Part shown: positions 9,273 to 15,256 of the stretch, in pieces
Position numbering within the stretch: the first letter of the stretch is position 1
How the letters are laid out: each line of letters opens with the position of its first letter
NCBI GenBank assembly: GCA_965198005.1
Contig: CBDAOI010000003.1
Coordinates: forward strand, 160,001 to 224,000
DNA from: Spirochaetia bacterium
GTDB lineage: Bacteria; Spirochaetota; Spirochaetia; SZUA-6; Bin103
Direction: 5' to 3'
Length of the DNA stretch: 64,000 nucleotides
The notes under the pieces: model-generated
What the model saw: the letters and a program-made list of their open reading frames with translations, nothing else
Database searches by the model: none
Told to the model about the DNA's origin: nothing
Made by a program: the position numbers and the translations under genes

Positions 9273-9980
9273 CTACTCCTGCTCGAACCCGTGATCGGTG
9301 AACTTGAGCGTTCGGCTGTTCTCGGTAACCGTACGCACGATGTGCTCGGGGGCGCCATCCGGGATTTCTGCTTCGATCTCCAGCGTCACGGTCAGGTTTG
9401 CACGCACCAGCCCGGCGAGATGCGCGATCACCTCATCGGCGATCTGGCTGGCATCGCGGCCGACGCGGGCAGCGTCGAGGGTAACGGCGCCGTGAAAACG
9501 CTTCAGTAGCCGCGGGGGAGGAGGCGGGGGCGGTGGGGGGTCTGGCCCGTTGCCTCCGTTGCCATTGCCACCACCGTTCGGAGGCGCGGGAACTGGCGCA
9601 TCGAGTTGCTTCCGGGCCACCGCGGGCTTGACGAGCAGACCCGGAGCATCTGCGTCGGGCAAGTTGATCCGATCTTGGACGCGTAGACCGCTATAACGTC
9701 CGGAACCCTCGTCGAAACTTTCGGCGAAAGCGAATGATTCCTGCTCCCAGGTCATCAACGACGTACCATCGCCGATGCTGCGCAACAGGACCTCCGGGCC
9801 CTTGAGCCGGGGCAGGTAGAGGTAGAGGTAGCGCGCGAAATCCTCGGCGAGTTGGGCAACGGACACGTGGTCGCCACGCCAGAGCGGGACACGGTCCAGC
9901 TCCATCCGCAAGAGCGTAGCGCCGTACGCGGTCATGAGCCCGTCCTGCGCCCGCAGCCGGCGGGACGCGCGAACCGCTGC
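9273..9980 (-). pseudogene. C-terminal fragment of DUF499 AAA+ ATPase
   Basis: RFHGAVTLDAARVGRDASQIADEVIAHL...RTVTENSRTLKF; N-terminal bulk missing. Confidence 0.75.
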
Positions 9981-10171
9981 CCAGCCGGTGCTTGCCCACT
10001 ATGGAGCCCCTCCCGTCGCTGTCCAGCTCGCCGCGGCGCTTCTACTTCGACGGCAGCATCTACGACGGCTGGTCCAACGTGCCCAAGCGGTTCAGGGACC
10101 CGTTCTCCGACGTATCCGAGCCGAGTCGAATCACGGCCCCAACAATCTTCAGCTTCAAGTGGGAGTTGTGA

Positions 10172-10390
10172 CCTGAGCCACAGCCAGTTGTGCCAGAACG
10201 CCTGCCAGAAGGAGCGGTCCTCGAACAGCAGCCGGCGGAAGTTCTCCAGGCCGATGAACTCCGCCGGCCCGATGCCCGACCACTCGGTCATCGAGTAGTA
10301 CACGGCGCTCACCGACGGGCTGATCTTGACGACGAAGTGCAGCAGCAGAATCGGGACGATGAACGCCCAGGCGATCAGGCGCGCCCTGCT
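10172..10390 (-). pseudogene. Carbohydrate ABC permease 5' fragment, interrupted by transposon (start codon displaced to 14194-14196)
   Basis: RLIAWAFIVP...SMTEWSGIG..FIGLENF..L..D..FWQA; the empty site reconstructs GTG AGC AGG GCG CGC CTG (MSRARL). Confidence 0.75.
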
Positions 10391-10542
10391 TGTTGCCCGC
10401 CAGGTGAGATTTCCGGGATGTGGACAAATCCGCCAGTGGGGGTAGGATAGGTTCGCCCGGGAAGCGTTCCGGAGATCACGAAAAAAGATAGGGGCCACCG
10501 CCAGTACTTACTCCGGGTACAACGGTGACCCCCACCTAAAAG

Positions 10543-11214
10543 CTGGATCATCCTAAACTAGACGGCTTCGACTTTCAAGCCTACCGCCAATCCCTGATCA
10601 GAGAAGGCGGCAAGCGTCCCTGCGTGCTGTGCGGGGAGAGCCATGCGGTGGTGATTCATTGCTACTGCAAACGCCTGGTGCGGTGCACCGACGGCAGTAA
10701 TCACCAACACCTGATCGTGGTGATCATCTGTGAGCGGGCGCGGGAAGCGGGCACCCAGTACACCAAACGCATGCTGCCGTGGTTTGTGATTCCCGAGTGC
10801 AACATCAGGCTCGACCTGGTGCTCGAGCTGCGGAAGAAGCACCCCACGGCCGGCAGCGCGCGTGCCCACGCCTACGCGGTGATCGGCAGCGCCTGTGAGC
10901 GCACCATAGCGCGTCATCTGCTGTGGGTGGACGACACCATCGCAGCGATGCTGCTGGAGGTGAACGAGTGGGTGGCCGAGCTGGCGCCGTTCACCGCCTT
11001 GCCACCGGTGCGCGTGGGCGAAGGTGCGCTGGCGCAGTTGCGGCGCTCAGTGGCCGCGCTGGAGAAGGCCAGACAGGCCGCGCTCGGTATCACCGTAGCG
11101 TTCACCGTTGTCGGCTGCGTTCACCTCGCCTACGTCGCGGAGCGCGCCCGGAGCCCCCCGCCGCTTCCATTGAGTCTAGTATTTCGAGGCGGCTGTTGGT
11201 TCGATACCACTTAA
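10543..11214 (+). CDS. Cys/His-rich putative Zn-binding transposon protein (DUF6431-like)
   Basis: PCVLCGESH..IHCYCKR...IIC...MLPWFVIP; frame open from CTG 10543, GTG alternative at 10624. Confidence 0.6.
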   Translation: MDHPKLDGFDFQAYRQSLIREGGKRPCVLCGESHAVVIHCYCKRLVRCTDGSNHQHLIVVIICERAREAGTQYTKRMLPWFVIPECNIRLDLVLELRKKHPTAGSARAHAYAVIGSACERTIARHLLWVDDTIAAMLLEVNEWVAELAPFTALPPVRVGEGALAQLRRSVAALEKARQAALGITVAFTVVGCVHLAYVAERARSPPPLPLSLVFRGGCWFDTT

Positions 11215-11239
11215 GCATCCACCCTCAGGAGGCATCAAA

Positions 11240-11833
11240 GTGGATCAACTACTGGTTTCCCCCGACCGTTTGGCGCAGCTGGAAGAGCTGCTGCTGCTCT
11301 TTCATCGGATCTTGACCGAACCGACGCCACCGCCACGCCGCCGCGACTGGTTGCTGGAGCATTGCCGGCGCAGGAGCGCCGATGAGCGCGATCTGTGGCG
11401 TGCCCTGGCTGGCTACCGCAGCAGCGATGCGACGGCGTTGCTGCACGCCGACCACACCCGGGGGTCGATCTTCAGCCGCCAGGCGGCGCTGGTGCGGGAG
11501 AACATTCTGAGCCAGCTCATCGATGCTCCCCAGTGCGTGCTGGGCGGGTTCGATGAACTCTCCCAGCTGCTGCAGCTGATCGGCGACCGGTTGCAGTTTC
11601 TCTGTGACTGGGTGCTGGAGTTGTTCCTCACTCCCGAGCCGTGGCAGCAGATCGATTCACACCACCTGGAGGTAGCCGGCGAGGTGCTGCTGCAGAAGCT
11701 CGCCGAGGAGGTCGAGCGCCTGCGTGAGCTGTACGCTGAGCAGCCGCGCCTGTCCCTCGACGAGCTCACCAGCGAGTACCGCGATTGGCTGTGCCGGCGG
11801 GCCGTCGTCGGCGAGCGCGAGGACCTCGAATGA
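11240..11833 (+). CDS. Hypothetical helical, acidic/Leu-rich protein of the transposon
   Basis: AGGAGG RBS before GTG; stop overlaps transposase ATG (ATGA). Confidence 0.7.
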   Translation: MDQLLVSPDRLAQLEELLLLFHRILTEPTPPPRRRDWLLEHCRRRSADERDLWRALAGYRSSDATALLHADHTRGSIFSRQAALVRENILSQLIDAPQCVLGGFDELSQLLQLIGDRLQFLCDWVLELFLTPEPWQQIDSHHLEVAGEVLLQKLAEEVERLRELYAEQPRLSLDELTSEYRDWLCRRAVVGEREDLE

Positions 11834-13290
11834 GCGGCCCCGACTTCCCTTGGGAGCAGATCCCGGACGCGGCCATGGAGGCGTTTGACGAACGCCTGCG
11901 CTTGGTCGAGATGCTGCTCGACCCGCACATCGGGAACGCCGACAAACGCGCTGAACGCCGCCGCTACTGTGAGCAGCATCGGGTTGGCGGGCGCACCATC
12001 CGAGGCTATCTCCACCGCTACCGCAAGAAGGGCCCCCGGGGGCTGCTGTTCTACCGGCCGCGGCCCACCTCGCCTCGCGTCCACGATCCTGGGCTGCGCG
12101 CCAAGCTCCTCGCGCTGGTCAACGAGCTGCCCACCAGGAGCATCCCTCAACTGCGCAAGCTGCTCGCCACCGACGATCAGTTGGGCAGCAAGATCAACCG
12201 GAATTGCCATCTACCGCTTCCATGGCCGAGCAGCCGGTCACCTCATCTCAGATCGCACCATCTACCGTGGCCGAGCAGGGCCTCACCCAGGCGGTCCGCT
12301 ACCGCATGCTCGCTGAAGACTCGCGCAGCTCCTACCGCTCGTTCGAGGCACCGCACTCCCTGGCCCTCCTGCAGGCCGACGCCCGCGACGGCATCTGGCT
12401 CAACACCCCCCAAGGCCGCAAGAAAACCTACCTGTTCCTCTGGATCGACGACTTCTCCCGCAAAATCCTGTTCGGCAAGTACTATTTCGACGAGAAGCTG
12501 CCCGCCCTGATGGACAGCTTCCGCTATTGCGTCCTGCGTTACGGCGTGCCGGTTCGGTGCTACGTCGACAACGGAAAAGTTTACATCTCGCGCCACATGA
12601 TGGCCATCCTGGTCGAGTTACAGGTCAAACGAGTGCGCCACCCGCCCTATCAAAGCTATTGCAAGGGGAAAGTCGAGGCGCTCAACAAGATCATCAAGAA
12701 CCAGTTCCAACGTGAGGCCCAAGTCGCCGGGATGCGTACTGAACGATTCCGCCTTCTGGGCCTGGATGGATCTGGAATACAACGTCCGCGTCCACTCAGC
12801 CACCGGCCAGAGTCCAGATGCACGTTTCCGCGACGGGCTGCCCGCCGACCACCGCCGGATCACCGATCTGGAGACCTTCAACGCCCTGTTCCTGTGGCGC
12901 GAACGGCGCACCGTCACCAAGTACGGCAGGATCAAGCTGCACGGCAACCAATACCCCGATCACCAGCGTGGCGCGAACGGCGCACCCCCAGTGGCAGCGT
13001 CGTCGAGCGTCGTCGAGGTCCGCTTCGACCCCTACGACCTCGCCCAGCTGGCCATCTACGACCCCGGCGGCGGCCTGCTGGAGACCACCAGCGCCTCCAA
13101 ACAGGTCACCACACAGGTGCCGGCGGTCCCCGAGGAGTCCCGCGCCAAGCCGCCCGAGGTGTCGGCCGCCGCCCGGGACTACTTCACCCGCCTGCGCGAG
13201 CAGCACCACGCCCAGCTCCGCGACCGCAACCAGACTTCGTTCAGCCAGTTCCGCACTACCCCCAAGGAGCACCACGATGCAGATGCATGA
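11830..13290 (+). CDS. DDE (rve/Mu-like) transposase, with frameshifts at ~12200-12270 and ~12740
   Basis: HTH region; LLQADA..., WIDDFSRK, YVDNGKVY, KGKVEA; YNVRVHSATGQSP and VEVRFDPYDL C-terminal motifs across three frames. Confidence 0.85.
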
Positions 13291-14074
13291 TCACGTCCTC
13301 TCCTTCTTCGGCTTCTCCCGCCTGCCGTTCGGCAAGCACCTCCAGCCCGCCGACACGTTCCCCTCCACCGCCCATCAGGAGGCGCTCTCCCGCCTCTCCT
13401 TCGGCGTCGCCGACGAGGATATCCTGCTCCTCACCGGCCCTATCGGTTGCGGCAAGTCGGTCGCCCTCGCCGCCTTCGTCAGCGAACTCGACGGCAACCG
13501 CTACCGCCCCCTCTACGTCCGCGCTGCCGGCCTCTCGGAAGCCCAGCTCTACAAGGCGATCCTCGATGAGTTGAAGATCGATCCGCCGTTCTTCGCCGGC
13601 CAGGCCAAGCAGCTGTTCTTCAAGACCATCCCCGAGCTGACCAAGAAACCACTAGTCATCCTCGACGATGCTCAGGACCTTGCGGCCACCGCCCTGACGG
13701 CCATCAAGAACATGGTCAACTTCGCCTTCGACACCAAAAACTCCATCACCTTCGTCCTCGCCGGCCAACCCGAGCTGCGCGAGTTGCTCAGATATGCTTC
13801 CTTCGCTTCCTTGCGCCAGCGCATCCGTATCTCCTATCACATGCCGGCCATGGCTCTGGAGGAGACCTGTCGCTACATCGACCACCACACCGTCCGCTGT
13901 GGCCGCCCTGCCTCGATCTTCGCCGATGATGCCAAAGCTGACATTCACCGCCACGCCGGCGGCGTTCCGCGCCTGGTCAACGCCGTCTGCTATCGCTCCA
14001 TCCTGCACGCCGTCGTCAACGACATCAGCATCATCGACTCCACCAACATCGTTACCGATGAACTCGACAGCTAA
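13277..14074 (+). CDS. ExeA-like AAA+ ATPase (transposition helper)
   Basis: Walker A GPIGCGKS, Walker B LVILDDAQ, LAGQPEL, LRQRI, GVPRLVN; AAGGAG RBS. Confidence 0.9.
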   Translation: MQMHDHVLSFFGFSRLPFGKHLQPADTFPSTAHQEALSRLSFGVADEDILLLTGPIGCGKSVALAAFVSELDGNRYRPLYVRAAGLSEAQLYKAILDELKIDPPFFAGQAKQLFFKTIPELTKKPLVILDDAQDLAATALTAIKNMVNFAFDTKNSITFVLAGQPELRELLRYASFASLRQRIRISYHMPAMALEETCRYIDHHTVRCGRPASIFADDAKADIHRHAGGVPRLVNAVCYRSILHAVVNDISIIDSTNIVTDELDS

Positions 14075-14216
14075 CCTCCACCAGCCGTCGGCGGCACTCC
14101 CCGCTGGCGGCCGCCCGGCATCAGTGCCAGGCGCGCTGCGGCAATCCTGCTTGGCACGGTTTGGAAACGGCGGCTGGCCGGCAACACCCTGCTCACGGTC
14201 TTTCCATTGGGTGTAG

Positions 14217-15256
<1,040 letters not shown>

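Follow-up and report, generated by a model that had tools for sequence, protein, structure and literature searches.

Several groups of bacterial transposons pair a DDE transposase, recognisable by its rve core, with an AAA+ ATPase as a helper. IS21, Tn552 and Tn5053/Tn402 are all built in this way, and all have TG...CA ends with several binding sites. Elements of the IS481 family have one gene. Here we describe an element which occupies positions 10391-14186 of a 64,000-nt stretch of DNA from a Spirochaetia bacterium (assembly GCA_965198005.1, contig CBDAOI010000003.1, positions 160,001 to 224,000; the whole stretch is called the window in the following). It carries four genes in the order orf1, orf2, tnpA and tnpB, the last two encoding the transposase (TnpA) and the ATPase (TnpB). 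IS21 combines an rve core, a helper ATPase and multiple terminal repeats; TnpA of the element shares the rve core, but it also has a Mu-type C-terminal domain (Mu-transpos_C), which IS21 lacks. In Tn5053/Tn402, with the gene order tniA-tniB-tniQ-tniR, and in the Tn7-like elements, a DDE transposase with a Mu-type C-terminal domain is accompanied by an AAA+ regulator and a small zinc-finger/helix-turn-helix (HTH) target protein, which is the architecture of TniQ. Unlike these systems, the element has neither a resolvase nor TnsA. Their three-part logic is the model for the adaptor role of ORF1 considered below. Tn552 from Staphylococcus aureus, with the rve/Mu-C-type transposase p480 and the ATPase p271, resembles the element on paper. 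However, Tn552 has inverted repeats of approximately 120 bp, a resolvase (bin), resistance cargo and no zinc-ribbon gene, while the terminal repeat of the element is 24 nt long; just the 6-bp repeats reported for Tn552 (PMC3276174) agree with it. Tn552-II, the subject of PMC12486829, is a tnpABC element that forms a circular intermediate.

The closest described system is Tn6049, the only named member of its family that we could find, and this Tn6049-like family seems to be named but essentially unstudied. We found no mechanistic study of the group in the literature, and nothing on the family turned up among the listed papers on ExeA in connection with transposons. According to PMC2864759, Tn6049 is 3.5 kb long and present in 12 copies in Cupriavidus metallidurans CH34, each with an ATPase gene called 'gspA'. 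PMC4739549 gives 12-bp imperfect inverted repeats starting with TGT and 4-bp direct repeats, and for Tn402 duplications of 5 bp. Tn6049 is also present on the Pseudomonas aeruginosa plasmid pHS87a, where it encodes a Cys-rich 'transposase' of 181 aa, an 'IS481 family transposase' of 479 aa and an AAA ATPase of 277 aa, in the same order as the corresponding genes of the element. It differs from the latter by a 90-aa ORF after the ATPase and by the absence of ORF2.

Compared with these systems, the locus in the window is, with good confidence, a copy of a 3.74-kb autonomous Tn6049-like transposon, in which a three-gene core is combined with the clade-specific ORF2 and which makes target duplications of 6-7 bp. 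We classify it as a new variant within the Tn6049-like family, with four genes and duplications of 6-7 bp, and not as a new class. The element is mobile and present in multiple copies, its ends are defined, and its four-gene operon is kept across orthologues. Its features in the window are the following:

10384-10390, unstranded: left copy of the target duplication CCCTGCT, seen in the sequence and in empty sites.
10391-10414, plus strand: left terminal inverted repeat (TGTTGCCCGCCAGGTGAGATTTCC), 18/24, kept in the copies with a left end and in the genomes G003, G007 and G022.
10391-10524, plus strand: left end region with conserved subterminal blocks, namely three CCGCCAG, a TAGGATAGGTTCGCC block and a promoter-like site.
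10421-10448, plus strand: promoter-like site TGGACA-16-TAGGAT, overlapping the second CCGCCAG.
10525-10539, plus strand: four-codon mini-frame GTG ACC CCC ACC TAA at the position of the ORF1 start of homologues (MTPT...); the TAA is in frame with ORF1.
10543-11214, plus strand: ORF1, a Cys/His-rich protein (CxxCGxxH...H...C...C...YTKRxLPxFxIPEC, followed by helices) according to alignment and searches.
11240-11833, plus strand: ORF2, an orphan of 197 aa, predicted with low confidence to be all-helical; GGAGG is located 7 nt upstream of its GTG start.
11830-13290, plus strand: tnpA pseudogene for a DDE transposase with HTH_32, rve and Mu-transpos_C domains, 467 aa when intact; three frames, 8 indels.
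13277-14074, plus strand: tnpB, encoding an ExeA-like AAA+ ATPase (AAA_22; motifs GPIGCGKS and LVILDDAQ); the gene is intact and does not differ from that of an intact copy.
14075-14186, plus strand: right end, in which GTTGCC recurs internally and a CGCCAG(C/G)G block is conserved; its terminal inverted repeat is at 14163-14186.
14187-14193, unstranded: right copy of the target duplication CCCTGCT, seen in the sequence and in empty sites.
10175-10390, minus strand: 216-bp 5'-end remnant of an ABC sugar-permease-like gene, whose GTG start codon is at 14194-14196, beyond the element.

We searched the entire assembly (4 contigs, 4.89 Mb) at the DNA level. The window genome (G000) contains nine copies or fragments, which share the start and the stop of homology, exactly at the positions corresponding to 10391 and 14186. 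The copies start with TGTTGCC and end with GG(C/A)AACA, and their flanks diverge from the first outside base. In copy C (C4:1127321), which has four perfect frames, the first T of the left tip reads G. Since the same 3.8 kb contain eight longer inverted pairs that arose by chance, the 24-nt terminal inverted repeat (75% complementary) is meaningful only because the boundaries of the copies and the termini of orthologues agree with it; the same termini are conserved in the orthologous elements of G003, G007 and G022. The 216 bp at the end of the left flank have a single counterpart each, with 91-97% identity, in four related genomes of the genus, G006, G005, G009 and G001. In all four of these relatives the site is empty: one (A/T)CCTGCT leads directly into CAT or CAC, with which the permease gene starts on the minus strand. 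The initial annotation had delimited the element at the same two positions, had noted the exact duplication of CCCTGCT on both flanks and had restored the start of the permease gene by removing the element together with one CCCTGCT. The empty sites in 4/4 relatives show that this reconstruction is correct and that the duplication comprises 7 bp. Thus, insertion of the window copy separated the start codon of the permease gene from its body. The gene is called a putative sugar permease after its N-terminal sequence as read by eye; the short 216-bp piece gave no match in Pfam.

The length of 7 bp holds for the window copy, but it is not typical of the clade, as the initial annotation would have implied: the orthologous copies in G003, G007 and G022 have 6-bp duplications, so that 6 bp is found in three of the four clean insertions. 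When target sequences of own-genome, orthologue and sister-family insertions were compared by eye, no obvious consensus was seen, which speaks against a TnsD-like, site-specific selector. A motif scan confirmed the CCGCCAG sites at 10397, 10430 and 10498 (plus strand) and 14104 (minus strand), which had already been likened to multiple transposase-binding sites. The motif is common in the window (59 matches versus 29.4 expected). For the stretch of 108 bases with the three sites of the left end, our own arithmetic gives an expectation of about 0.05 matches per strand. Only the one at element position 40 is kept in all five orthologous ends. The subterminal blocks of the left end may be bound by the transposase.

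The domains of TnpA were found by Pfam (HTH_32, 3.1e-10; rve, 3.2e-07; Mu-transpos_C, 2.8e-11), and the residues D171, D234 and E270 are invariant in 8/8 aligned sequences including Tn402 TniA and Tn6049 TnpA. Among solved structures, TnpA matched only retroviral integrase cores (best 2.1e-07), and TnpB gave no match. TnpB matches AAA_22 (2.1e-17) and TIGR03015 (2.4e-40, under the cut-off of that model), and it has 410 homologues at E<=1e-10, several of which bear the name ExeA or GspA in the source database. The DDE triad and the Walker motifs are in place, and tnpA and tnpB overlap by 14 nt. The best curated NCBIfam model for TnpA is that of IS481 (NF033577, 1.3e-38); its score of 133.2 bits lies below the cut-off of 224, and IS481 membership was rejected.

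All relatives examined have a Cys-rich gene in front of the genes for transposase and ATPase. This also holds for Tn6049, to whose proteins TnpA is 24% identical over 205 aa (2e-15) and TnpB 22% over 259 aa (1e-12). The closest annotated relatives are plasmid elements of Streptomyces (NZ_CP109471) and Thermobacillus composti (NC_019898), whose transposases are 30-35% and whose ATPases are 29-33% identical to those of the element, and which lack ORF2. In the Streptomyces element a gene with DUF6431 and HTH_23 domains is followed by the transposase gene, a 92-aa ORF and the ATPase gene; in that of Thermobacillus an unannotated, DUF6431-matching ORF of 201 aa is located directly upstream of the transposase homologue. 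Three sister families, in G001 (3.53 kb), G012 (3.18 kb) and G005 (3.57 kb), consist of three genes between TGTTG...CAACA ends, namely a Cys-rich first gene, a transposase gene (product approximately 29% identical) and a gene for an ExeA-like ATPase; they also lack ORF2. Their duplications, judged by eye, comprise 5 bp at 14 and 4 bp at three of 18 copies, and one copy has none. Each of these families (loci L043-L060) has at least six copies, which are 99.97-100% identical. Near-identical copies with 4- or 5-bp duplications suggest that the families were probably active recently in the sister genomes. A metagenome scan for intermediate relatives detected one locus, without a left end.

We found 95 unnamed homologues of ORF1 in a word-indexed search and 174 matches at E<=0.001 in a profile search of 1.84 billion cluster representatives. 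A relation to DUF6431 (PF20020) is suggested by three observations. In a language-model protein atlas, 27 of the 30 nearest clusters belong to the DUF6431 set (score 0.96). Seven of 40 distant hits of the ORF1 profile have a weak match to DUF6431 (best 0.0012). Finally, the 201-aa ORF of Thermobacillus is recognised by the ORF1 profile with 7.9e-8, in a small search set, and also matches DUF6431 above the Pfam cut-off (5.4e-10). We therefore regard ORF1 as a putative, divergent DUF6431-type zinc-ribbon protein, although its profile misses the Streptomyces DUF6431 protein and the Cys-rich proteins of the other relatives. In the literature on DUF6431, as far as titles and abstracts tell, the domain is mentioned in passing only. 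The initial annotation had counted both ORF1 and ORF2 as extra genes. This applies to ORF2, but not to ORF1, which is a core gene of the family, because a core of Cys-rich or DUF6431-type protein, transposase and ATPase recurs in distant relatives. Regarding its role, ORF1 could possibly be a TniQ-like adaptor between DNA and the ATPase, by analogy with Tn5053/Tn402; with slightly less conviction, it could be a regulator repressing the promoter-like site at 10421-10448. We think that the adaptor role is somewhat more likely than that of a repressor of the left-end promoter.

Two start codons can be considered for ORF1, CTG at 10543 and GTG at 10624, the latter of which would remove the first Cys. 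The mini-frame upstream of it, whose stop is present in 6/6 own-genome copies translated, leaves CTG as the first in-frame start candidate. In G003, G007 and the metagenome contig L042, one extra A turns the same GTG into the start of a 10-codon upstream frame overlapping ORF1, and in G022 and many metagenome homologues the ORF1 start is fused. The mini-frame may serve translational control, or the start may simply be non-canonical.

ORF2 had been proposed to be translationally coupled to the transposase, and the overlap of its stop codon with the tnpA start (ATGA) was indeed seen. It has no Pfam or NCBIfam match and no usable match in the atlas. Its homologues form 30 clusters, none with a domain or a name, and in 20 of them the protein has exactly 197 aa. 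When one genome of each prokaryote species was scanned with a pattern, ORF2 was detected at five loci, all adjoining tnpA sequence, and no genome was added to those already found; L042 additionally carries all four genes. The order orf1-orf2-tnpA-tnpB is kept in G003, G007 and L042, and also in G022, where a deletion spans the junction between orf2 and tnpA. The dN/dS values are 0.42-0.56 for orf1, 0.26-0.60 for orf2 and 0.19-0.29 for tnpA and tnpB. Among the own-genome copies, all seven in which orf1 and orf2 are present have both of them open, and orf2 remains so in spite of damage to tnpA or tnpB. These data show that ORF1 and ORF2 are real genes and that ORF2 is under purifying selection. 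ORF2 is thus no loose cargo but conserved together with the transposase, in agreement with what the initial annotation had considered, and it was found in this clade only.

The genome harbours five full-length copies, including that in the window, and four further partial or split loci. Of the latter, one is interrupted by a 3.5-kb insertion, another has an internal deletion, and two are fragments, one from the right-hand part and one, of 340 bp, from the left-hand part. The copies are 91-100% identical to the window copy and their ends are identical; intact copies have a length of 3739-3743 bp. All four frames are open in the copy G000:C4:1127321-1131059, which we used as reference. The four genes of G000:C4:1611852-1615594 are colinear with it, and the copies at C4:404145-407886 and C3:132912 differ from it only at the very start of tnpB. 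In contrast to the intact transposase gene assumed initially, tnpA of the window copy is distributed over three frames (11830-12210, 12204-12740 and 12712-13290). Compared to the reference it contains 8 indels (+43, -5, -11, +3, +1, +15, +1 and +10), every one inside tnpA, while there are just 8 substitutions over the whole element and the two copies do not differ in ORF1, ORF2 or the ATPase. The window copy is dead in that it can no longer make its own transposase; since it keeps both ends, it could still be mobilised by intact copies elsewhere in the genome.

Several of the indels are short local duplications (43, 15 and 10 bp), and they lie within 12201-12996; mutational decay, template switching and a polishing artefact are candidate causes of their clustering in tnpA. 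The split copy is interrupted at tnpA codon 233, and the 3.5-kb insertion found there (G000:C3:906389-909883) has ATGCCGA half-sites at its borders and CGTCGA on both sides. The left flank of the C3:132912 copy (C3:132612-132911) belongs to another repeat family, whose members at C2:441326-441623, C2:770502-770799 and C2:149855-150129 all end or are cut at the same base. An empty-site search for copy A showed only that its left flank is another repeat family. The surroundings of the element in the window are a patchwork: on the left, the permease remnant of 216 bp gives way to unrelated sequence (9273-10174), and the right flank (14194-15256, minus strand) consists of the first 354 codons of a SNF2/ResIII-type helicase gene, which ends at the element.

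The features shared with IS21, Tn552 and Tn5053/Tn402 raise the question of whether the element is a proper member of one of them, the more so as TnpA (467 aa) and TnpB (265 aa) are near p480 and p271 in size. We consider this highly improbable, because the specific comparisons gave little. TnpA reached 39.8 bits with the IS21 transposase model NF033546 (cut-off 160) and TnpB 20 bits with the IstB model NF038214 (cut-off 200). A fragment of Tn552 p480 was 20% identical over 178 aa (1e-6) and p271 gave nothing significant; the E values for Tn402 TniA and TniB were 4e-5 and 0.014. Moreover, there was no Pfam match to TniQ or TniB, and no resolvase gene is found among the four genes. At the other extreme, the element could be regarded as a categorically new class of transposon. 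ORF1 and ORF2 fall into no family of Pfam or NCBIfam, the IS481 cut-off was missed by far, all 94 plasmid records found by tblastn with TnpA are below 60% identity, and only one of 400 other genomes sampled from the phylum matches at E<=1e-60 (36% identity). Nevertheless, both core enzymes have clear homologues in Tn6049 and in annotated plasmid elements of the same gene order, with which the Cys-rich first gene is shared as well, and a new class is thus very unlikely. Accordingly, the initial description as a poorly described transposon outside IS21 was justified, while its placement in a separate class was not, since the core recurs in Tn6049 and others.

Within the Tn6049-like family, the nature of ORF2 and the state of the window copy deserve similar consideration. 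ORF2, and less likely also ORF1, could be a passenger gene, for example with a host-directed or anti-defence function and without a part in transposition. For ORF2 neither a family nor a fold nor an atlas neighbour could be detected, none of the more distant relatives examined has it (nothing better than E 0.16 was found with its profile), its dN/dS exceeds that of tnpA and tnpB, and part of it was lost in G022. However, it is located inside the operon between two core genes, with its own ribosome-binding site and the overlap with tnpA; its length is fixed at 197 aa in two thirds of the homologue clusters; it occurs only next to tnpA, at 5/5 loci of the species scan and at the metagenome locus; and it stays open in 7/7 own-genome copies. 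On balance, ORF2 is probably an accessory subunit, and a passenger is a less attractive, rather unlikely alternative. As for the broken tnpA, an assembly or polishing artefact of a multi-copy repeat might have created the indels in a copy that is really intact. The presence of 8 indels but only 8 substitutions, the confinement of the indels to one gene and the short local duplications are compatible with this, as is the type of assembly (metagenome-type, 4 contigs, 90% completeness), and public short-read contigs show the intact-type sequence at 12200-12244 and 12267. Since these contigs may derive from other copies in the same genome, they decide nothing on the indels in the window. They break at 10390/10391, as expected of a repeat, and no contig bridging an empty site was identified when the public runs were compared with the window. 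Other copies have been damaged independently and in different ways, by a deletion in A, by loss of internal sequence in F and by the 3.5-kb insertion in E, from which it follows that copy decay is normal in this genome. We regard an artefact as improbable and decay of the window copy as the likelier explanation.

How would such a four-gene transposon move? By comparison with the better-studied families, the transposase would bind several sites in each of the asymmetric ends and pair the TG...CA termini, nick the 3' ends and join them to target DNA at positions 6 or 7 bp apart. The ATPase may coat or mark the target DNA and switch the transposase on, in analogy to MuB, TnsC, TniB and IstB. ORF1 would be a DNA-binding accessory protein, and ORF2, produced along with the transposase, an accessory subunit or regulator specific to this clade. 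Because neither a second-strand nuclease (TnsA-like) nor a resolvase gene is present, transposition may proceed without second-strand cleavage via a branched, Mu-like intermediate, which would be prone to cointegrates, adjacent deletions and inversions. This would fit the many own-genome copies without duplications: the genome search suggested initially did find the shared ends, but there is no target duplication at any of the six other copies with two ends. Many flanks of copies are themselves repeated in the genome, which permitted a comparison with paralogous loci. At five copies the paralogue of one flank continues into sequence unlike the other flank, and for the C4:1127321 copy the two flanks are 274 bp apart in 3/3 paralogous loci, which amounts to an adjacent deletion. 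It is suggestive that the copies lacking duplications are leftovers of branched, replicative movement in the absence of a resolvase. Cross-matching duplications between copies, a sign of inversion or cointegrate formation, were not seen by eye among 8 left and 8 right flanks.

A number of points weigh against the interpretation presented here. Recombination between repeats or misassembly would explain the lost duplications equally well, given a metagenome-assembled genome with repeated flanks, and 17 of the 18 sister-family copies have clean duplications of 4-5 bp by eye, so that proneness to rearrangement is not a trait of the whole family. The figure of 6-7 bp comes from four insertions only, and it differs from the 4 bp stated for Tn6049 in PMC4739549; we treat the duplication length as variable within the Tn6049-like family and not as defining. 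Identity to Tn6049 is low, and the first-gene proteins of the two elements are not significantly alike by profile comparison (hhalign of ORF1 with the 181-aa protein, probability 2%). ORF1 had no direct match in Pfam or NCBIfam even at E 1, and its link to DUF6431 is indirect: the ORF1 profile gave E 6.4 with the Streptomyces DUF6431 protein, and it missed the Cys-rich proteins of G001, G012, G005 and Tn6049. TniQ/TnsD or zinc-finger folds had initially been envisaged for the upstream proteins, but the AlphaFold2 model of ORF1 (pLDDT 63.8) had no Foldseek match in PDB at E<=0.001, and the model of ORF2 reached a pLDDT of 48.0; as both models are poor, no fold supports any role of ORF1 or ORF2. 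Finally, in all own-genome copies examined the frame from which homologues translate ORF1 is stopped at codon 5, and translation of ORF1 in the window genome is therefore hypothetical.

The longer duplication co-occurs with ORF2: it is found at 4/4 clean insertions of the ORF2-containing clade, in comparison to 17/17 shorter duplications at insertions of elements without ORF2. It is tempting to speculate that DUF6431-type proteins are target-side adaptors in a third large lineage of transposons with three components (transposase, AAA+ ATPase and zinc-finger adaptor), parallel to Tn7 and Tn5053, and that ORF2, as a newly recruited fourth subunit, widens the spacing of strand transfer from 4-5 to 6-7 bp. 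We would give this idea as a whole only a small chance, and a causal link between ORF2 and the longer duplication is pure inference.

The description of this element is important for several reasons. Mu, Tn7, the CRISPR-associated transposons and other elements that couple a Mu-type transposase to an AAA+ ATPase are the models from which control over the choice of targets is understood best, and programmable tools for DNA insertion are based on them. Tn6049-like elements are common, as indicated by the 410 homologues of the ATPase. Further, an 'IS481 family transposase', an 'ExeA/GspA ATPase' and an unnamed Cys-rich ORF, if found side by side in genome annotations, should be read as one mobile unit. 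Last but not least, the clade described here is a natural comparison, in which the same core is combined with one extra gene and a duplication that is 1-2 bp longer. Intact copies such as G000:C4:1611852-1615594 make it possible to ask what the function of DUF6431 is and what sets the stagger of the target cut.

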